From positions 1,271,849-1,335,848 of the forward strand of contig CBDBLX010000002.1 of assembly GCA_965207445.1 (NCBI GenBank): 64,000 bases of DNA, in the 5' to 3' direction. This stretch comes from Nitrosopumilus sp. (lineage in GTDB: Archaea; Thermoproteota; Nitrososphaeria; Nitrososphaerales; Nitrosopumilaceae). Below are positions 3,397 through 52,057 of this stretch, piece after piece. Position 1 is the stretch's first letter. The number at the start of each line of letters is the position of its first letter. The translations under genes were made by a program, and so were the position numbers. The notes beneath the pieces are model-generated. The model did no database searches. It saw nothing but the letters and a program-made list of their open reading frames with translations, and had not been told where the DNA came from.

Positions 3397-4491
3397 TTAT
3401 GCCTTGTTCTGTCGTCGTCTCTCCAGCTTGGCCAATTTGCGCTTGTACAGATCTTCGTTGCGTGACTCGTAGCTAGTATTGTTTTGGAGCATGTGCCACA
3501 TGATGTTCATCATTTTATTCGCGACTACGACAACTGCAAGCGCATGCTTGTCTGCATGTCGTTTGCGTGCTGCTTCGTATGCGGCTTTCATTCTCAGATC
3601 ATGTCTGGCCGCCACACTGGCAGCCTCACACATTATCCAATTTACAAGCCGGTCTGTGCCTGCCTTTTTTATCTTTCCAAGACGCATCTCATTACCTGAT
3701 TGTCTTATTGTAGGACAGAGCCTCGCCCATGAGATCATTTGTTTGGGAGTCTCAAACCTCGATATATCCGATATCTCAACTGCCAATAGTATGGCCGCAT
3801 ACGTGCCAATACCTGTCATACTGACAAGCAGTTTTGCATACTCATTTTGAGCTGCTTCGGCATCCAACTGTTTGTCAGTTTCTACAAGCTCGCTTGTGTA
3901 GTGTTTGATTTGTCTTACACACTGCTTTAGTACAAAGTTATCCTGTGCATCACCGAGATTGAGAGTGTCCAGATAGAATAGTGCCTTGTGAGAGTACATG
4001 TTGGCCGCATGTGCGGCCTTACCATGAGCATCAAGCAGGTTGTGTATTTGGTTTATCACCTTGGTTCTTGCCTGTACCAGACGTACATGCTGCCTCACAA
4101 GATTCCTAATTGCACGTATGTGCTTTGATGGAATGTAACACTCTGGAATGGAATTCATCCTGAGTATCTGTGCTATCTTTTCTGCATCTATCTTGTCAGT
4201 CTTTTTTCCAGTCTTGTTGATCAGTGCCATCTTGTACGAATTGGCAAGCTTGATCGGAATGCCAACATCTTCAAACGCATTAACTGTCGTAATCCACAGG
4301 TTAGCTGTGGTCTCGCATGCTGCAGTGCATTTTCCCATCTTACCATACTTGTCAAGTATGGCGTGTGCACATTGTCTTGCATCCTCTTGCGTGTTAAAGT
4401 ATTGCCCACGGTCGAGTACCTTGCCCCTATTGTTAACTACACAATAGTCACACTTTTTCTTGCTAATGTCTATACCTATGCTTATCTTCAT
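3397..4491 (-). CDS. IS110-family transposase/recombinase
   Basis: GIDISKK, ACETT, KTDKIDA DEDD motifs; PTIRQSG catalytic-Ser motif; AGGAGGTGA Shine-Dalgarno-like site upstream. Confidence 0.95.
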   Translation of the reverse strand: MKISIGIDISKKKCDYCVVNNRGKVLDRGQYFNTQEDARQCAHAILDKYGKMGKCTAACETTANLWITTVNAFEDVGIPIKLANSYKMALINKTGKKTDKIDAEKIAQILRMNSIPECYIPSKHIRAIRNLVRQHVRLVQARTKVINQIHNLLDAHGKAAHAANMYSHKALFYLDTLNLGDAQDNFVLKQCVRQIKHYTSELVETDKQLDAEAAQNEYAKLLVSMTGIGTYAAILLAVEISDISRFETPKQMISWARLCPTIRQSGNEMRLGKIKKAGTDRLVNWIMCEAASVAARHDLRMKAAYEAARKRHADKHALAVVVVANKMMNIMWHMLQNNTSYESRNEDLYKRKLAKLERRRQNKA

Positions 4492-9184: not shown

Positions 9185-11329
9185 GTGCGTGTAATGAGTA
9201 ATGCTTCTGCCACCACACGTGAGAATAAGATTTTACGCGATAAACTCGCGCACATGTGGAAGTTTGTAAACGTCATAATGGAAGCATGGGGGGAGCAGGC
9301 TGCCATGTTCATCGATGAGATCAAGAGACTTGAAGGCAAAGTCGAGAGTCTGAAAACATACTGTGATGAACTCAAAGAACAACTGCAAGATGCAAAAAGG
9401 CTTTTAGCAATGCATGAGAACTATAACAACCCAGACAGGGGGACGAAGACTGCCCATGATAGGCAGAAACACAGACAGGCGTTGAGAGCCGAGAGTGAAG
9501 AGAATGTGCAGTGTGCCATGGATGTGGAAAAGGAAAAAAGCAGTAGAAAATCTGGCCTGCGACATCGCGGCGGCCAGCCCGGTTCAAAGGGCATGTCGTG
9601 TAGCCTAAAACCAGACAGGAAACTAGATGATTTATGCGCGCCCGAAACATGCGTCCGGTGCGGCAGAACTGACATCATACATTTAGGATTCCTATGGAAG
9701 ATGGTACTTGAAATACGCGAGTATGGCGACCGGTTCTGCACAAACCCAGGACCATTTGAGAATCCCAAAGAGATGGTGGATAATTTGCACATGAACGGAG
9801 CATTGTTTGCCTATATGGAGGCATCAGTTCCTGCAATCTGCTTGCAGTGTGAGGTGATCATCTACCCAGAGACGCCGTCGATCCCAGGATCGTCGTGCGG
9901 ACCGATCTTGCGCGAAAAGATCATGAACCTGCACGGGCAAGTGCCACCCGTGCAGCGCATACACAATATACTTGCCGCAAACCATCATACTGAGATCGGC
10001 ACAGGCACCATCTCAAAGTGCCTAAAGGCAATATCACAACACGCTACGCACGACTGTTTGTGGGTAAAGGCACCCCGTGATATTATTGAGGATGTAAAGG
10101 CGGCCTATAGCACTGATACAAAAAAGTCAGAGACATCTACTAATGAAATGGTCGCATATACTGAACAAGATGATAATGGTGAGGAGACAATCATAATGAC
10201 TGCACACTCTGAGCCTCCTGTTGCCATGTTCTGGCAACAACCTGCTGCTGAACCACCAAAACTAAAATCCGAAGACTCTCCCCTACCTGAGACGACGCTT
10301 GTGCCGTATACTATACCTGACACACACATGCACAGCGTCCTCCCGCCACTATTCACCCAGATATACGAGATGATCACAATGGCCCCCAATATTATGTGGG
10401 ACAAGTCAAATGCAAAGGTAGCAGGACACCGTCGACAGACGCTCGTACTGCTCTGTCCCGGAATTGCCACCATGATAAAAATTACAGACAGTAAATCAAA
10501 AAATCTCATACAATACATGTTCCCGGATCTGCTTGGCAGACTTCTCCAGGCCGACATGTATCTTGCAGGCAATGCGTTTGATGGTGACATACAGACATGC
10601 CGTGTACACCTCTGGCGTCGAGGCGAGTCGTTGGCAGTATTGCACGGCATACACTCACCAGAACAGACGTACTCTGAAGAGCATCTCAATATATTCAGAC
10701 TCTCAAAACGCGCAGGTGAACATATAACCCAGCTGGCCGGCGGCCCGCTCACATCTATCTGCGAGGTTGACAGTGTGATTCGAGCCATACCTGGACTCTC
10801 ACAAACAATAAGTGATGAGGTCGACGTACTAAATACTCGCATGCTCAAATTGATAGACGCGTACCGGCACGGTGAGGTCTCTGATGAAGACACGCACAAA
10901 TACGCCACCTCACTTGAGAATGCACTACCATACATGTTTACATTTCTGTGGCATCCGGGTATGCAAGGTCACACAAATGACATTGAGCGACTCATCAAGA
11001 AATGCAACGTATTGCCGCGCAAGATGCAAGGGGGACTTCCAGACTGGACGGCTGCAAAAACGCAGGCCAACCTGCAGACCATACATGCAAACTCTGCTCT
11101 GTGGGGCGTATTCTCAGGACAATTGGTATCGGGATATCGCGGCAGTTGGAAGCCTCCACCATCAGATTCAATCACAATAATGTCCACGTCGTCGCCTCCA
11201 CCATCATCACAGAGACCACATCCGCGTGTCACCAAAAAACATATCACGAAATCCTCTGATCCATTAATACAAGCACATGACCTCATCTGCATACCAAAAT
11301 CACAAAATGTCAAGGTCGCTGCCGCATGA
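9185..11329 (+). CDS. IS66-family (TnpC-like) transposase, divergent, 714 aa
   Basis: Coiled coil, GGQPGSKG, CxxC...CxxC, QTCRVHLWR and HTNDIER motifs. Confidence 0.75.
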   Translation: MRVMSNASATTRENKILRDKLAHMWKFVNVIMEAWGEQAAMFIDEIKRLEGKVESLKTYCDELKEQLQDAKRLLAMHENYNNPDRGTKTAHDRQKHRQALRAESEENVQCAMDVEKEKSSRKSGLRHRGGQPGSKGMSCSLKPDRKLDDLCAPETCVRCGRTDIIHLGFLWKMVLEIREYGDRFCTNPGPFENPKEMVDNLHMNGALFAYMEASVPAICLQCEVIIYPETPSIPGSSCGPILREKIMNLHGQVPPVQRIHNILAANHHTEIGTGTISKCLKAISQHATHDCLWVKAPRDIIEDVKAAYSTDTKKSETSTNEMVAYTEQDDNGEETIIMTAHSEPPVAMFWQQPAAEPPKLKSEDSPLPETTLVPYTIPDTHMHSVLPPLFTQIYEMITMAPNIMWDKSNAKVAGHRRQTLVLLCPGIATMIKITDSKSKNLIQYMFPDLLGRLLQADMYLAGNAFDGDIQTCRVHLWRRGESLAVLHGIHSPEQTYSEEHLNIFRLSKRAGEHITQLAGGPLTSICEVDSVIRAIPGLSQTISDEVDVLNTRMLKLIDAYRHGEVSDEDTHKYATSLENALPYMFTFLWHPGMQGHTNDIERLIKKCNVLPRKMQGGLPDWTAAKTQANLQTIHANSALWGVFSGQLVSGYRGSWKPPPSDSITIMSTSSPPPSSQRPHPRVTKKHITKSSDPLIQAHDLICIPKSQNVKVAAA

Positions 11330-11489
11330 CTTTTTAATATAATCATATTATTGCAAAACTTGCCCCATATTATGCCATTTTTGTACCATCCACACACTCC
11401 TCACCTCTGACACTACTAACACAATACACAAACTGGCCGTGCCGCCACCATCCAATCCGATGTTTTTGCCTTGAACAACGTGACGCTGT

Positions 11490-11525
11490 ATGTTACCTGC
11501 ATGTTACCTGCATGTTACCTGCATG
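11490..11525. repeat. 11-bp tandem repeat ATGTTACCTGC x3
   Basis: Directly visible. Confidence 0.9.
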
Positions 11526-11698
11526 GCCACCATATCGCATACCATAACGCCTGTCCGATATCTGTCTAAGGTGGCAGCGTAAGTGGGTGAGAGTTGAGGG
11601 GAGGGGGTGGGGGTGAACGCTTGTTTACATGGTTACCATGCCACCATCAACGATACTTTTATACCTCATATTACTACATTAAACAGGGACGAATACAC

Positions 11699-11794
11699 AT
11701 GGCCAAAAAAATAACCAAAGAAGAGAAAGAAAAAATCATAGAGGATCTTCTAAGCAAGCACTATAAGGTATACGATCGGCTGGCAGAACTGTAG
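11699..11794 (+). CDS. 31-aa putative antitoxin (MAKKITKEEKEKIIEDLLSKHYKVYDRLAEL)
   Basis: Its stop abuts the ATG of the next gene (MYYPTVHDVELVIEKINRH, Doc-like N-terminus), which IS481 cuts at 11851. Confidence 0.5.
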   Translation: MAKKITKEEKEKIIEDLLSKHYKVYDRLAEL

Positions 11795-11949
11795 ATGTAC
11801 TACCCAACAGTTCATGACGTCGAACTTGTTATTGAAAAAATAAACCGACATAAGTTGTCTTGTAAGTATCTATGTGGGATCCTTATAAGCGATTCTTCAC
11901 TTTTCGTACTAAAGTGCGCAGCATACGCTAGGGTGGTGTTTTTCCGGAG

Positions 11950-12080
11950 GGTGGTTCGGATATGTATCTATACGAGCATTAAATCTCAATACCATGCTTC
12001 ATCCATTCGTTAGGGGCACTATGCAGTTAGTTCCCCGAGCATTAAATCTCACACTTACAACGCACAAATCCCTAACCATA
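11950..12080 (-). ncRNA. Putative bridge (seek) RNA with target-binding and donor-binding loops
   Basis: 16-nt module CGAGCATTAAATCTCA repeated at 11973-11988 and 12036-12051, flanked by arms matching the donor junction and the target site. Confidence 0.8.
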
Positions 12081-12095
12081 ATTTTTCACATCTAT

Positions 12096-13319
12096 TCATT
12101 TTTTTTTCTTGGGGTTACGATGTGTACTCTTTTTACCCATCTCTACACATGTCCAAAAATCTATATTCTTTGTTAGCATCCAAAATACAATTTTGAGCAT
12201 CTTGGCAGCAGCGGCAACCTGTGCTTTTGAGACGCCTCTTTTCTCCTTTAATCTTTCATAAAATACACTTATTGGAGTCTGTCGATTATTATTCTTTGCA
12301 AACTGCACATGAGACAACACACATTCTGTGAGCAACTGTCGAACCATGGAATTTCCCATTTTCGTTATGGCACCATGGTGAACTGTACTGGCAGAATTCC
12401 TCACAGATGGAGCTAGTCCAAAATAAGCAACAAGACTGCCCATATCACGAAATCTTGAGATATCACCAATTTCAGATGATAATGTAAGCGCAGTCACAGG
12501 ACCGATTCCAGGCATCGTAGTCAAAAGTGAAGCGTGTTCGTTTTTTGATACTGCATTGGATATTTTATCATCACAATCACGAACATCATCATTTAAAAAT
12601 GCAATTGTTTTGATATGTTTGTCTATCCTCCAGTCATTAAGCTTGCGTAAATTTTGTATATGTTCAGCAGAAAATGGAATCCCTTTGATCTTGATTCCAC
12701 TTTGTAACAATATTGCATGAACACTATTTTTGGACTTTACTCTAGACTTTACTACTGTACTTCTATACCTGACCAATTGTCTATTATGTACATCCTTTTC
12801 CTCTGGAACATAACATCCTGCAATATATCCACCCCTTAGCAGATCTGCCAATATACGAGCATCTACTTTATCTGTCTTCTTTTTTGATTCAGCTATTCGT
12901 TTTGTTGCAAGTGGGTTTGATAACATCACATCCAAATGCAATTTTTCTGTGAGAAATCTATACATGCCATACCATACAGAAGAAGATTCCAACACGTATT
13001 TTGCATTGGGCGGAAACTCAGAAAATTCTTTTACAATATCAATATGATTGCACTCAATTCGTTTATTTTGTCGAACATTACCTTTAGGATCCATAATTGC
13101 CACTTGCATGAATTTTTTGTGAAGATCAATTCCAACAAAATATTTTTGAGCATTATCATATTTTACCGATGTTTTTGTGGTTGTTTTTTTCACCTTGCTT
13201 ACGCTATGACTATCCATATGGTCATTTTTTCTACCCCTAATCTGTTTGTTTGCATTTTGCTTGTGCGAATCACGATCTATACCATCTGAATTTCTACTCT
13301 GCTGTGTTTTTCGTGCCAC
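12096..13319 (-). CDS. IS110-family recombinase, 407 aa
   Basis: VGIDLHKK, VLESS, KTDKVDA and GLAPSVRNSA motifs. Confidence 0.95.
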   Translation of the reverse strand: MARKTQQSRNSDGIDRDSHKQNANKQIRGRKNDHMDSHSVSKVKKTTTKTSVKYDNAQKYFVGIDLHKKFMQVAIMDPKGNVRQNKRIECNHIDIVKEFSEFPPNAKYVLESSSVWYGMYRFLTEKLHLDVMLSNPLATKRIAESKKKTDKVDARILADLLRGGYIAGCYVPEEKDVHNRQLVRYRSTVVKSRVKSKNSVHAILLQSGIKIKGIPFSAEHIQNLRKLNDWRIDKHIKTIAFLNDDVRDCDDKISNAVSKNEHASLLTTMPGIGPVTALTLSSEIGDISRFRDMGSLVAYFGLAPSVRNSASTVHHGAITKMGNSMVRQLLTECVLSHVQFAKNNNRQTPISVFYERLKEKRGVSKAQVAAAAKMLKIVFWMLTKNIDFWTCVEMGKKSTHRNPKKKK

Positions 13320-14578
13320 ATATGGTTAGTTCCGCCTTGAGTGTACGCCTAGATATAATCATATTTTATATGAAAGGTGTGATAAGTTTAGCTTTTATGC
13401 CCACTTGGAGAGAAAAGAAAATTGGCTACTAGTGGTGTAGATCCTCATATATCCGTGTGCGGAGTGGAAATGAAGGTGTGTGGGTCAAATCATGATCCTC
13501 GTACAAAGATCAAAACTAGGCTCAAAAATGGTAAAAAACTTCGTGTAATACATAAACTTGATGAGGAACAGGTACGGTGGATAGTTCAGCAAAAGCACAA
13601 TGATGAGATGAGTGACACCCAGATTGCAAAATTAGTGGGTGTATCTGCACGATGGGTTAGAAAATTGTTCGTACGATATGGTCATTTACAGCCAAAAGAT
13701 ATCACATATCCTCCAAAGATGGGACGTCCTTCTAATGGATTACCAGGCCGTCGAGAACATTCTGCAGTGATATCTTGTTGCAAGCAGAACAGACGTATGG
13801 CAGTCAGACTCGATACTAATAGAAGAAGAAATCGGAATCCATATTTCTCACAATATCATATATAGGATATTGAAAGATGAGGAGTTAGTAGAAAACCAAC
13901 CAAAAAAAGCAAAGCAGCGAAAGTGGGTTAGATATGAGAGAAGATTCTCAAATTCTTTATGGCATACGGATTTTAAGCAGATTTACGATGGTAGATGGTT
14001 TGTGTCCTATCAGGACGATGCATCTAGGATGATCATGGGCTTTGGAGTGTATAATGAACCTACAAGTGATCATGCAATAAAGGTGCTTGAGGGCGCCATC
14101 AAGAAATATGGCAAACCTGCCCAAATACTAACGGATCATGGATCTCAGTTCTATGCAAATGAGAAAAAGAACTCTGAGCGCGGTGTAGCAGTATTTGAGA
14201 ACAAGTTAGTCGAGCTTGGTATCAAACAAGTCATGGCACGTATAAAACACCCTCAAACCAATGGTAAATTAGAACGATTCCACTCTGAGATTGAACAACA
14301 TCTAAAATCATTTGAAGAAGAGTCTGCATGTAATACAGTTCGCGGTTCCAAACCCGGCGACCATGTGGGGAATCCATTCCATACTATGGGTATAACAGAC
14401 CCAATAACAAGACTCATCAACTGGTACAATAATCTCCCACATATGTCACTAAAAGACGGTAAAGAGACGCCTATAGAAGCCTATAAACGCAAACAAGCAC
14501 CAAAAGACATAACAGCAAAAGAAATGGAGAGTCATACATATGTCAAATCATAAGTGGAATTACTTACAGGATAACACA

Positions 14579-14977
14579 CCACGGTGTTTGCCACCGGGGG
14601 GCTGGACGATCCGCGAGGTGTTGCGATCGGGCCAAAGTATACGGCGCCCGCCGCCACCGCCGGCGTACCACAACGACGCGCCGTCCATCACACTGCAGAA
14701 CTCCACACACGGCATCCCATTCCGCACAGAGCTCGCCCGGAATACCACTACGGACTACACCGTAACGGCCGCGGATCCAGAGGACGATCCGGTAACGTTT
14801 GCTCTAGTACCGCACGCAATAAAACGAGGTGCAATCACCTTATCAGATCACCACAATGCCACGGCAATCCTGTCGATCAACACGTCCCAAATGGACACGG
14901 GAACGTACACCTTTGAAATCACTGCATCAGACGGACATGACATTGAGCGCACGCTCTACGCGGTTGTGGTACGTTGA
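14579..14977 (+). pseudogene. 3' remnant of a surface protein (NHL-like repeat plus cadherin/Ig-like domain), truncated by IS481
   Basis: GGLDDPRGVAIGP then NDAPSI...VTAADPEDDPVTF...GTYTFEITASDG, in two frames. Confidence 0.6.
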
Positions 14978-16413
14978 GCCGCAAGCGACTAACAGTCATA
15001 ATTGTAGCTTCGTTGACAGCCGCCTGCATTTTTGCTCTGGTTGCGGCGCCCACCCACACAGATAACATGGATGCCCCGATCCCGCCCCCTGCAGACTCGC
15101 CAAACGACATCTCGGACACCAATGAGGGGCACGCGGATGCCCCGATCCCGCCCCCTGCAGACTCGCCAAACGACATCTCGGACACCGGTGATGGGCACGC
15201 GGATGCCCCGATCCCGCCCCCTGCAGACTCGCCAAACGACATCTCGGACACCAGTGCAGAGTACACGGGTCCACAGATCCCATCGGAGGCGGCCTCGTCA
15301 AGCAACGCCTTTGCCATTGACATGTACAGGAAGCTAGCCTCAGATCCCAAACACAAGGACGAGAACGTATTCTTCTCGCCATTCAGCCTCTATATTGCCG
15401 CCTCACTCGTGTACGAGGGGGCGCGGGACGAGACCGCGTCACAGATCGAGCAGGTCTTTGACCTCGAGCCCGACGACCGCATGCGGCACGAGATCATATC
15501 CAATACGTCGTCTTCAATAAACCGCCACGATCCGCACGCGACGCTTGTCACTGCAAACGCGCTATGGCTCGACAGGGGATTCGACCCGTACCAAGACTAT
15601 GTGGACATAGTACGCGACGTATATCGTGCCGACATCGACCGCCTCGACTTTCTCAACGACGCGGAGAACGGAGCCAAGCGTATAAACGCTTGGGCAGGTG
15701 ACAAGACCCAAGACAGGATCCCCGAGGTGGTGACCCCGAAAGATGTCTATCGGGCAGCATCCGTGTCCACCAACATGATATACTTCAAGGGCGCGTGGGC
15801 AGCGCAGTTTGATCCCGCCGACACCCACAGGGGCGCGTTCTGGAGGACCGATGCCTCCAAGGCCGAGGCGGACTTTATGCGCAACACGGCATTTTTCAAC
15901 TATGCAGAATCAGACCTGGCACAGATTCTGCAGATGCCCTATGAGGGCGGCAGGCTCTCGATGCTGGTGTTTCTGCCGTCGGAGCGCGACGGCATACGCG
16001 ACCTTGAGGATGTGATCTCTGCGCAGCGCATAAAGACGTGGAAGGAAGGCATGTCGACCATGGAGGTTACGGTCCTGATGCCAAAGTTTGAAATGGAAAC
16101 ACACTATGAACTCAACGATCACCTGACGAGCCTCGGGATGCCGCATGCATTTGATCCGATATTGGCGAACTTTTCAGGAAAAGTCGATCTCACAAAAATA
16201 CCGGAGAACCTATACGTGAGCAGCGCCAGCCAGAGCGCGTTTGTCAAGGTGAACGAAGAGGGCACGGAGGCAGCGGCCGTTTCTGTCTTTATAGACAAGG
16301 TTACTTCAGAACCGCCCAAATTCATTGCCGATCGCCCGTTCATCTTTGCAATACAGGATGATGCAAGCGGCACAATACTGTTCATGGGACGCGTGTCGGA
16401 TCCCGCGAAGTGA
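14974..16413 (+). CDS. Secreted serpin with N-terminal Pro/Asp-rich repeats
   Basis: NVFFSPFS, IYFKGAW, VNEEGTEAAA hinge, FIADRPFIF and ILFMGRV motifs; signal peptide. Confidence 0.95.
   Translation: MSRKRLTVIIVASLTAACIFALVAAPTHTDNMDAPIPPPADSPNDISDTNEGHADAPIPPPADSPNDISDTGDGHADAPIPPPADSPNDISDTSAEYTGPQIPSEAASSSNAFAIDMYRKLASDPKHKDENVFFSPFSLYIAASLVYEGARDETASQIEQVFDLEPDDRMRHEIISNTSSSINRHDPHATLVTANALWLDRGFDPYQDYVDIVRDVYRADIDRLDFLNDAENGAKRINAWAGDKTQDRIPEVVTPKDVYRAASVSTNMIYFKGAWAAQFDPADTHRGAFWRTDASKAEADFMRNTAFFNYAESDLAQILQMPYEGGRLSMLVFLPSERDGIRDLEDVISAQRIKTWKEGMSTMEVTVLMPKFEMETHYELNDHLTSLGMPHAFDPILANFSGKVDLTKIPENLYVSSASQSAFVKVNEEGTEAAAVSVFIDKVTSEPPKFIADRPFIFAIQDDASGTILFMGRVSDPAK
15070..15252 (+). 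repeat. 66-bp coding tandem repeat x~2.8 (DAPIPPPADSPNDISDT..)
   Basis: Units start at 15070, 15136 and 15202. Confidence 0.95.
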
Positions 16414-50335: not shown

Positions 50336-51662
50336 TGTGCTATCCTGTAAGTAGTTCCACTTATGATTTGACATATGCATGACTCTCCATTTCTTTTGCT
50401 GTTATGTCTTTTGGTGCTTGTTTGCGTTTATAGGCTTCTATAGGCGTCTCTTTACCGTCTTTTAGTGACATATGTGGGAGATTATTGTACCAGTTGACGA
50501 GTCTTGTTATTGGGTCTGTTATACCCCTAGTATGGAATGGATTCCCCACATGGTCGCCGGGTTTGGAACCACGAACTGTATTACATGCAGACTCTTCTTC
50601 AAATGATTTTAGATGTTGTTCAATCTCAGAGTGGAATCGTTCTAATTTACCATTGGTTTGAGGGTGTTTTATACGTGCCATGACTTGTTTGATACCAAGC
50701 TCGACTAACTTGTTCTCAAATACTGCCACACCGCGCTCAGAGTTCTTTTTCTCATTTGCATAGAACTGAGATCCATGATCCGTTAGTATTTGGGCAGGTT
50801 TGCCATGTTTCTTGATGGCATCTTCAAGCACCTTTATTGCATGATCACTTGTAGGTTCATTATACACTCCAAAGCCCATAATCATCCTAGATGCATCGTC
50901 CTGATAGGACACAAACCATCTACCATCGTAAATCTGCTTAAAATCAGTATGCCATAAAGAATTTGAGAATCTTCGCTCATACCTAACCCACTTTCGCTGC
51001 TTTGCTTTTTTTGGTTGGTTTTCTACTAACTCCTCATCTTTCAATATCTTATATATGATATTGTGAGAAATATGGATTCCGATTTCTTCTTCTATTATAG
51101 TCTCGAGTCTGACTGCCATACGTCTGTTCTGCTTGCAACAAGATATCACTGCAGAATGTTCTCGACGGCCTGGTAATCCATTAGAAGGACGTCCCATTTT
51201 TAGAGGATATGTGATATCTTTTGGCTGTAAATGACCATATCGTGAGAACAATTCTCTAACCCATCGTGCAGACACCCCCACTAATTTTGCAATCTGGGCG
51301 TCACTCATCTCATCATTGTGCTTTTGCTGAACTATCCACCGTACCTGTTCCTCATCAAGTTTATGTATTACACGAAGTTTTTTACCATTTTTGAGCCTAG
51401 TTTTGATCTTTGTACGAGGATCATGATTGGGCCCACACACCTTCATTTCCACTCCGCACACGGATATATGAGGATCTACACCACTAGTAGCCATTTTTCT
51501 TTTCTCTCCAAGTGGGCATAAAAGCTAAACTTATCATACGCTTCATATTAAATATGATTATATCTAGGCGTACACTCAAGGCGGAAGTACTTACATTGAC
51601 GATTATTCCTATGATCATATCTAGGCGTACACTCAAGGCGGAACTACTTACAAGACAACTTA
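50336..51662 (-). mobile_element. IS481-family element copy 2, intact transposase 50361-51494
   Basis: TIRs; 15-bp TSD CTTCCGTAATTGATT at 50321-50335 and 51663-51677. Confidence 0.95.
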
Positions 51663-52057
51663 CTTCCGTAATTGATTAAAGGTCCCAACAGAGGTATTAG
51701 ACAACTCGTCGACATTATCCAATTGAGTGGTGTTGGAAGTATGAGCATTATGAATATTGCTAGTATGGAGAACGCCAGCCCAAACACTGCCAACTCACGT
51801 TTTTTTCGTATATCATCAGGTCTATGCTTGGATAGTTCTCTATTGATTGGATCGCTGAATAAATTTGTCCGGGTATTTTTTCTGCGCTCAGTTGAATCAT
51901 AATTATTGTTAGCATCGGTTCGGCTTTTTAACGTTGTTCGAATGTCTTCAACATTGTTTGGTAAATCTTCATATAATAATCGCCGTAAATCTTCTTTTAC
52001 GACATCTTGAGTCTGACTCAGCTTGACACAACCCCACAATTTTCTAACTGATCCCAT
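51663..52057 (-). pseudogene. Membrane protein interrupted by IS481
   Basis: The TSD lies in its LINYG codons; the remainder continues below 50321. Confidence 0.6.

Follow-up and report, generated by a model that had tools for sequence, protein, structure and literature searches.

Introduction

To our knowledge, experiments on recombinases that are guided by a bridge RNA or seekRNA have been carried out on bacterial elements only. The present study deals with an archaeal locus, namely a stretch of 64,000 nucleotides of Nitrosopumilus sp. (assembly GCA_965207445.1, contig CBDBLX010000002.1, here C2, positions 1271849-1335848), which belongs to a genome of 2.6 Mb in two contigs and is termed the window in the following. 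An insertion sequence (IS) of the IS1111 type (IS110 family) at 11869-13326 of the window, on the minus strand, very probably carries its own two-loop guide RNA for both its landing site and its own ends, as judged by sequence comparison with its relatives. The mechanism as well as the IS1111 layout are already known, while the archaeal member is new and well documented at the level of sequence.

In IS1111 elements the RNA is encoded downstream of the transposase gene, and the segment matching the top strand lies 5' of that matching the bottom strand (PMC11187229). RNAs of this architecture were found to co-purify with IS1111 and IS110 transposases (PMC11187229), and 93% of the IS1111 elements in ISfinder are predicted by covariance models to have a bridge RNA (PMC11208160). 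The sub-terminal inverted repeats of the group measure 7-17 bp (PMC11208160), usually 11-13 bp, and the terminal extensions beyond them 7 (or 6) bp and 3 bp (PMC11187229). In bacterial IS1111 and IS110 elements, a promoter of the -35/-10 type is formed at the junction (PMC11187229; PMC13604230). The bridge-RNA literature considered here (PMC11208160; PMC11187229; PMC13604230; 10.1101/2024.06.21.599552; 10.64898/2026.10.21.760802) further catalogues 662 archaeal IS110 recombinases, calls IS1111 elements abundant in bacteria and archaea, and reports bridge RNAs mined at scale in bacterial and archaeal genomes. A description of an archaeal bridge RNA, of its targets or of its promoter was not met in the parts of these sources at hand, the supplementary tables of which may list some.

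The element in the window resembles the IS1111 elements ISEc11, ISKpn4, ISPa11, and ISPst6 (Siddiquee et al., 2024; PMC11187229) in its DEDD transposase and downstream non-coding region, in the combination of sub-terminal inverted repeats with short asymmetric terminal extensions, in the apparent natural reprogramming between close relatives and in a promoter at the circle junction, which is putative in our case. It differs from them in its archaeal host, in being known from sequence alone, in a repeat of 7 bp instead of the usual 11-13 bp, and in extensions of 4 and 2 nt plus TA instead of 7 (or 6) and 3 bp (PMC11187229). Moreover, the same 16-nt hairpin occurs in both loops of the RNA, and the putative promoter would consist of a TATA box situated entirely within the 3' end, combined with a leaderless GTG start, rather than of -35/-10 elements.

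With IS621 and ISCro4 (Durrant et al., 2024; PMC11208160; structures 8wt6 and 9t56, respectively) the locus shares a target-binding loop followed by a donor-binding loop, two guides per loop directed to opposite strands around a shared core dinucleotide, and a homologous recombinase in which the same acidic residues and serine are aligned. Nevertheless, the RNA is encoded at the 3' end of the element here and at the 5' end there, the protein match is weak (E 7e-8 to 4e-9), and the protein bears a basic N-terminal extension of 60 aa. The core dinucleotide is TA, unlike that of IS621, which is CT. A further parallel is offered by IS4321 and IS5075, which insert in repeats of the Tn21 family and are likewise IS1111-type elements that enter another mobile element within its terminal inverted repeat, where their position and orientation are fixed. 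In contrast to these, the present element uses both ends of its host, an archaeal IS of 1.3 kb that contains HTH and rve genes.

Insertion Site and Copies of the Element

The element is bordered by two copies of a TA core, one at 11867-11868 by its 3' (RNA) end, where the junction reads TTGTAAG-TA-TCTATG, and one at 13327-13328 by its 5' (recombinase) end, where it reads ATGGT-TA-GTTCC. Because of these junctions, the target TTGTAAG-TA-GTTCC and the circle junction ATGGT-TA-TCTATG, both reconstructed in a preceding sequence-only reading of the window, proved to be right. A second copy, 99% identical (1460/1476), is located at C2:1749839-1751313 of the same genome (G000), and the similarity between the two copies ends exactly at (C/T)TGTAAG-TA and TA-GTTCC. 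A pattern search of the genome for the empty target site TTGTAAGTAGTTCC yielded four exact and at least six one-mismatch occurrences, which possess a single TA between TTGTAAG and GTTCC, whereas occupied sites have a TA on each side. Junctions, second copy and empty sites together define an element of 1458 bp that inserts at TA without further duplication. The insertion is site- and orientation-specific, terminal inverted repeats are lacking and nothing beyond the shared core is duplicated, as is characteristic of the IS110 family.

With one exception, the empty sites fall within the inverted repeats at the two termini of a 1.3-kb IS of the rve type, of which the genome contains six copies. 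The two element copies, A (window) and B, interrupt different ends of this host IS and share one orientation with respect to the repeat. The element parasitises another resident IS, the terminal inverted repeat of which is its target. In the window, the outer part of the host repeat is found at 11851-11868 (plus strand), and the same 18 bases run unbroken into GTTCCGCC... at five other places in the genome. The remainder of the host IS follows on the plus strand at 13327-14578 and is 97% identical to an intact copy in the window; it comprises an HTH gene (13422-13865, Pfam HTH_23), a gene for an rve integrase core (13870-14553, Pfam rve) and the far inverted repeat near 14556-14578, which was located by genome pattern search. 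Likewise, three relatives of the element (L033, L034, and L041) are inserted in the inverted repeats of a small element of ~180 bp.

The two copies also bear on the question of whether a genuine bridge-RNA element has meanwhile died, in which case both copies would be remnants whose RNA is no longer produced, and the matches described below would only document past activity. Such a state would agree with the occupation of only 2 of at least 12 suitable sites, with the absence of a circle junction from the contigs, and with decayed fragments elsewhere in the genome, i.e., a solo 3' tail (L005, C2:1572292-1572524; 73 bits with the RNA covariance model), a solo 5' end (L006, 944011-944184) and two short 3'-end stubs on the host-IS repeat (L008, 601104-601172; L009, 350119-350145). 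However, copies that are 99% identical, with both open frames intact (409 and 410 aa) and RNA cores only one base apart, argue for recent movement, which makes a dead element very unlikely.

Putative Guide Arms and Their Targets

The recombinase gene is followed by a non-coding tail of 227 nt after its stop codon (11869-12095, minus strand), while only 7 nt precede its start. This long non-coding region downstream of the gene is the hallmark of the IS1111 type, to which the sequence-only reading had correctly assigned the element. The tail contains a candidate bridge/seek RNA core of 131 nt with both loops (11953-12083, minus strand), the sole match in the window of a covariance model, R1, that was built from 21 RNAs (130 bits, E 1.1e-26). 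The 64-kb window contains exactly two copies of a 16-nt module (sense UGAG-8 nt-CUCG), one at 12036-12051 as the hairpin of the target loop and one at 11973-11988 as that of the donor loop, just where they had been reported before. By hand arithmetic with equal base frequencies, the exact recurrence of a 16-mer at a distance of up to 100 nt is expected ~0.0015 times per 64 kb. The strings said to flank the modules were recovered as well, with TAGTTCC (12028-12034) and ACTTACAA (12053-12060) beside the former and TATCTAT (11965-11971) and ACCAT (11991-11995) beside the latter.

On the sense (minus) strand the target loop precedes the donor loop, as had been proposed, and the target loop is composed of arm 1, hairpin and arm 2, in this order. 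Target arm 1 (sense UUGUAAGUG, 12052-12060) would pair with A-CTTACAA, i.e., the core A and the sense-strand 3' flank, and agrees with the flank at 7/7 positions in the window copy and 6/7 in the second copy. Target arm 2 (sense GGGAACUA, 12028-12035) repeats the 5' flank GGAAC together with the TA core, with agreement at 5/6 positions in both copies and the TA invariant in 21 sequences. The donor loop runs from AUGGU over the hairpin to AUAGAUA; its arm 1 (AUGGU, 11991-11995) is complementary to the first five bases of the element, ACCAT, and its arm 2 (AUAGAUA, 11965-11971) is identical to the last bases, ATAGA, plus the TA core. This bears out the earlier claim that the arms of the twin loops correspond to opposite strands of target and donor on either side of a TA core. 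A target and a donor loop, each with two guides for opposite strands and with a shared core, are what bridge RNAs and seekRNAs possess, and the position of the top-strand-complementary segment 5' of the bottom-strand-complementary one is that of IS1111 elements.

Arms and flanks were taken by fixed rules from 32 insertions in 16 guide classes, and the arms were compared with their own flanks and with those of the other classes. The comparison left out L012, the target loop of which has lost arm 1 and hairpin by deletion, L022, L037, L039, and L040, in which the donor-loop pattern was unmatched, and all loci from L042 on except L052. Arm 1 agreed with its own 3' flank at 4.97 of 7 positions and with flanks of other classes at 2.55; for arm 2 and the 5' flank the values were 3.92 and 1.55 of 6. 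As none of 200,000 permutations of the class labels was as good as the observed totals, the arm matches exceed chance. At least five of seven positions agreed for arm 1 in 24/32 insertions, and at least four of six for arm 2 in 20/30. A further genome, G079, had no part in building the rules and served as an out-of-sample case, for which all 20 R1 matches were fetched. Its 16 copies with a recognisable 3' end reached 6.06/7 for arm 1 (3.21 for 17 decoy guides), and its 11 copies with a 5' end 3.09/6 for arm 2 (1.07 for the decoys). The covariation of guide arms with flanking targets across homologs, suggested earlier as a check, is consequently present: homologs with other targets carry other arms that match their own flanks, instead of keeping the same arms.

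The target arms are the most variable parts of the RNA (column entropy 1.68 and 1.59, elsewhere 0.79). Entropy is low in the donor arms (0.31 and 0.14), which hardly vary, and 0 at the core TA, which is invariant. Two relatives, L028 and L033, are 93.0% identical (94 differences in 1337), yet 8 of the 11 differences in their tails fall in the two target arms, and each set of arms matches its own, different target. On sequence grounds, this pair is a case of natural reprogramming. A sister family in the same genome, with 66% nucleotide identity and copies C and D at C2:1400917-1402257 (L003) and C2:1188214-1189556 (L004), possesses the hairpin UGGG-8 nt-CCCG in both loops, a compensatory change with respect to UGAG-8 nt-CUCG. 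Its donor arm is AUGAU where its 5' end is ATCAT, as compared to AUGGU and ACCAT in the window, so that donor arm and element end co-vary. The donor arm of the sister family fits the ends of its own element, and arm 2 fits the 5' flanks. The reading frame of its copy L004 is split.

An alternative explanation regards the tail as a conserved 3' untranslated region of the ordinary kind or as a terminator; the protein itself would pick the target, and the arm matches would be coincidental or a by-product of insertion in repeats. The quarter of the insertions with poor arm-1 matches would be accommodated by it, as would a minimum free energy (MFE) fold that is no better than shuffles. It fits the data poorly, however, given the outcome of the permutations over 16 guide classes, the agreement of the out-of-sample genome with the guides, and near-identical elements that differ mainly in their arms and occupy different targets; we regard its probability as close to negligible.

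Fold of the Candidate RNA

The alignment underlying the fold consists of 21 distinct RNA cores from tblastn-confirmed relatives of the recombinase in public genomes, the 3' tails of which are alignable across their whole length. It supports five helices: the target loop has both a basal and an inner stem, the donor loop a basal one, and each loop contains a hairpin. The basal stem of the target loop, P1 (sense GUUAGGG, 12070-12076, with CCCUAAC, 12009-12015), is the closing stem GTTAGGG/CCCTAAC that had already been recognised from the letters, and it encloses the target-loop module. Double changes affect 4/7 of its pairs in the 21 sequences, 98% of the cells are paired, and RNAalifold predicts the stem independently. 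P2, the inner stem closing the target loop (12062-12065 with 12021-12024), shows double changes in 4/4 pairs with 97.6% of cells paired, and the basal stem of the donor loop, P4 (12000-12004 with 11958-11962), has 97.1% of cells paired; both are predicted by RNAalifold. The target-loop hairpin is supported by covariation too, and in the donor-loop hairpin, identical to it in sequence, 4/4 pairs are kept in 21/21 sequences with double changes in two pairs.

Altogether, 95.2% of 504 cells are paired and 12/24 pairs show changes on both sides. None of 500 shuffles matched the observed paired percentage, the double-change pairs and cells, or the covariation score. The number of further pair types did not rise above the shuffles (25, with a shuffled mean of 27.1, reached by 495/500). 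When the partners were slid by one to three columns, only 29-46% of the cells were paired. RNAalifold, unaided, returned P1, P2, P4, and P5 and hence four of the five helices; the fifth was weakened by a one-column misalignment in five sequences. As for the modules themselves, the two hairpins, read by eye across the relatives, are identical in this element and two other guide classes and only similar in most others, and the earlier description of two identical loop scaffolds consequently applies to three guide classes and not to the family. An informal inspection by eye of the hairpin module for signs of a K-turn or of box C/D RNA revealed no tandem G-A pairs.

The stems keep G-U pairs at high frequency (8-97, GU in 12/21 sequences; 106-155, GU in 20/21; 118-144, UG in 21/21), which on the other strand would be A-C mismatches. 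This points to a single-stranded transcript of the sense strand. The same observation argues against a tail that acts as DNA, in which the arm copies would be recombination sites recognised by protein or paired with DNA, comparable to the accessory arms of integrases, and the inverted repeats would be cruciforms or binding sites. All evidence being DNA sequence, with no transcript seen, is in keeping with this alternative. It could also draw on partial tandem duplications in two relatives (L017 and L020), in which a 3' end is joined to arm-coding DNA and which imply that arm-coding DNA can itself recombine. Against it, the architecture is that of the RNAs that co-purify with IS1111 and IS110 transposases (PMC11187229), and together with the G-U pairs this renders a tail working as DNA highly improbable.

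Tandem partial duplications of the 3' end were observed in four relatives (L017:2559-2730; L020:2562-2680; L026:2431-2490; L023, near 2400-2469). In these, the first 3' end is joined at TA to DNA for a guide arm or for some later portion of the tail. They look as if the element had recombined with its own arm-coding DNA, which mimics target or donor.

Recombinase and Putative Expression Signals

The recombinase gene (12096-13319, minus strand) encodes 407 aa and opens with GTG at nt 8 of the element. Its identification as an IS110-family DEDD recombinase is backed by the two domains that Pfam recognises, namely DEDD_Tnp_IS110 (PF01548; 1e-22, 81.0 bits, cut-off 29, residues 62-206) and Transposase_20 (PF02371; 9.2e-23, 80.9 bits, cut-off 21.3, residues 264-341). 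Among solved structures, phmmer matched only ISCro4 (9t56, E 3.7e-9) and IS621 (8wt6, E 7.1e-8). Residues D65 (GID), E111, D150, D153 (TDxVD), and S309 are aligned to identical residues of both proteins, which, in IS621, we take to be the RuvC-like acidic residues and the C-terminal serine of catalysis. The alignment starts at residue 58, and residues 1-57 form a basic extension without counterpart in ISCro4 and IS621. This extension is kept in relatives, as tblastn matches start at query residues 1-7 in many of them. The closest relatives of the recombinase in public genomes were all found in Nitrosopumilaceae by tblastn, which also settles the archaeal host that had been surmised from the letters.

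The inverted repeats of the element are sub-terminal. The 5' copy (sense TATGTGG, 13316-13322) follows a terminal extension of 4 nt, ACCA, and includes the GTG start; the 3' copy (sense CCACATA, 11871-11877) is followed by an extension of 2 nt, GA. With the shared TA added, the extensions are asymmetric and do not have the published lengths; depending on the side to which the TA is counted, they measure 6 and 2 or 4 and 4. The base after ATGTG co-varies with its 3'-end partner in 12/16 class representatives.

As the gene opens at nt 8, the element offers no room for a promoter or leader of its own at this end. At the other end, a conserved A/T box (CTTATAAG, 11882-11889, minus strand) is located 13-20 nt from the 3' end and is a candidate archaeal TATA box. 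A similar box (TTTATAAA, TTATAA, TTTAAAAA and the like) was found at the same ungapped distance from the 3' end in 16/16 class representatives, and the frame from GTG at nt 8 is open through the whole recombinase in 14/16. After circle formation, the centre of the box would come to lie ~25-27 nt upstream of the GTG. Archaeal TATA boxes usually occur at such a spacing from starts, and leaderless mRNAs are common in archaea. The A/T box and the GTG start 8 nt into the 5' end therefore suggest an archaeal junction promoter with a presumed function in expression of the recombinase.

The circle junction was also sought in the assembled genome, where a pattern search allowing one mismatch gave only two unrelated matches. 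In the contigs of four sequencing runs that contain the stretch, the only record bridging 11868 to 13330, with one other letter between, represents an uninterrupted variant of a host-IS end from elsewhere and not an excision product.

Proposed Mechanism and Its Assessment

According to the best explanation, minus-strand transcription of the 3' tail would yield a bridge RNA (seekRNA) that is ~130 nt long or longer and forms two internal loops. The 5' arm of the target loop would pair to the right of the TA core with one target strand, and the 3' arm to the left of it with the other; the two arms of the donor loop would pair likewise with the joined ends of the excised circle. The DEDD recombinase, presumably bound to the two near-identical hairpins and the stems, would exchange strands at the TA core, by a chemistry expected from its homology with IS621, ISCro4, and ISEc11. 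In this manner, the element would have entered TTGTAAG-TA-GTTCC, a site that here belongs to the terminal inverted repeats of the resident IS, in a single orientation. Since the gene starts 8 nt from the 5' end and the TATA-like box lies ~17 nt from the 3' end, circle formation could create an archaeal promoter, from which a leaderless mRNA would arise. We assign a probability of roughly 0.87 to the full explanation, an active or recently active IS1111-type element with a tail-encoded bridge RNA in an archaeon of the Nitrosopumilaceae.

Several observations weigh against this explanation. The sub-terminal repeat of 7 bp is at the low edge of the IS1111 definition. The DNA of the stretch is present in four runs of one sample, as contigs, and in one run with a small share; none of the sequencing runs listed for the stretch is an RNA run, and the circle junction was not seen in the four contig runs, contigs being prone to drop rare forms. 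Rfam gave no match in the tail (11000-14500 searched at E <= 10, with three chance-level matches elsewhere). Folding the reverse complement of 11869-12095 on its own, as the sequence-only reading had recommended, resulted in an MFE no stabler than that of shuffles (z 0.16) and in a mostly unpaired centroid, and the case for the fold consequently rests on the comparison, in which a common structure across 21 RNAs did emerge. Arm 1 agrees at four or fewer of seven positions in 8/32 insertions (C, D, L010, L013, L014, L015, L024, and L032), arm 2 at three or fewer of six in 10/30. In the sister family, arm 1 fits neither 3' flank (4/7 and 3/7), and a predicted target of this arm was not found. 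Finally, in the L021 and L027-L034 groups, a donor arm 1 AUGAU faces the end ACCAT with one mismatch.

Distribution in Archaea

Model R1 matches 5 copies in the genome of the element itself, and in the family as a whole it detected RNAs in 20/151 genomes and 9/27 genera, with up to 22 copies per genome. Matches were likewise found directly downstream of recombinase genes of Archaeoglobi (L042, L044, L045, L046, and L062; 21-37 bits). At these loci the core is apparently AG, the sub-terminal repeats measure ~16 bp, and arm 2 follows the 5' flank in four loci inspected by eye (e.g., ATTTTT/ATTTTT and AGAATT/AGAATT). Beside homologs of Thermoplasmata, Nanoarchaeota, Bathyarchaeia, Aenigmatarchaeota, and bacteria (L047-L059, L068, and L070), R1 gave no match at E <= 1; the RNAs of such distant homologs may be too different for this model.

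It can be proposed, tentatively and at somewhat less than even odds for the reading as a whole, that a distinct archaeal lineage of IS1111-type bridge recombinases, adapted to gene expression in archaea, is common to Nitrosopumilaceae and Archaeoglobi. Production of the recombinase would then be confined to the excised circle, from a leaderless GTG mRNA with a TATA box ~25 nt upstream, and the 3' portion of this transcript would include the guide RNA. The loops would be built on a duplicated hairpin module evolving in concert, which would provide two equivalent docking sites for recombinase dimers. Ecologically, the elements would be hyperparasites in the inverted repeats of archaeal mobile elements, re-aimed by swapping ~14 nt of arm sequence.

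A clearly delimited archaeal family with natural cases of re-aimed guides and dozens of copies in some genomes would place the mechanism in a second domain of life. A protein of 407 aa, an RNA core of 131 nt and a TA core represent compact engineering material from which tools for archaea, or for other temperatures and salt concentrations, might be developed. In addition, archaeal bridge RNAs become available for comparison with box C/D guide RNAs, which is relevant to the suggestion that IS110 recombinases were the ancestors of Nop5-type RNA-guided systems (preprint 10.1101/2024.06.21.599552). The TATA box and leaderless start, if confirmed, would be the archaeal counterpart of the bacterial junction promoter. 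For annotation, interrupted IS copies in ammonia-oxidising archaea find an explanation.

Further Features of the Window

A second, distantly related IS110-family gene is located at 3397-4491 of the window (minus strand). It encodes 364 aa with 28% identity to the 407-aa protein and has two further copies in the genome, at C2:2063385-2064407 and C2:1166258-1167061. An RNA of the R1 type was not found near this gene, no search for another type of guide RNA having been made.

The intact host IS in the window, with HTH and rve genes, lies at 50337-51670 (C2:1322193-1323510 of the genome) and holds three unoccupied target-like sites, namely CTGTAAGTAGTTCC at 50345-50358, an exact target at 51640-51653 and an inner tandem copy of the target at 51583-51596. 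It is flanked by a direct repeat of ~15 bp (AATCAATTACGGAAG) that looks like a long target duplication. In five of the six host-IS copies, the inverted-repeat end is duplicated in tandem over 57 bp, which gives two target sites at a distance of 57 bp from each other. Only one unit is present in the copy that the element interrupts; in it, the left half of the outer unit continues into the right half of the inner one, as seen from a comparison of window 11851-11868 plus 13327-13390 with 51583-51662. Both a deletion between two sites and a variant that was never duplicated are possible origins of this single unit.

Just upstream of the interrupted host IS, an open reading frame (ORF) of 714 aa (9185-11329, plus strand) gave no Pfam match at E <= 0.001. 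On the other side, an ORF of 479 aa (14974-16413, plus strand), the translation of which looks serpin-like by eye, no search having been made, carries close to its N-terminus a proline-rich motif in three tandem copies.

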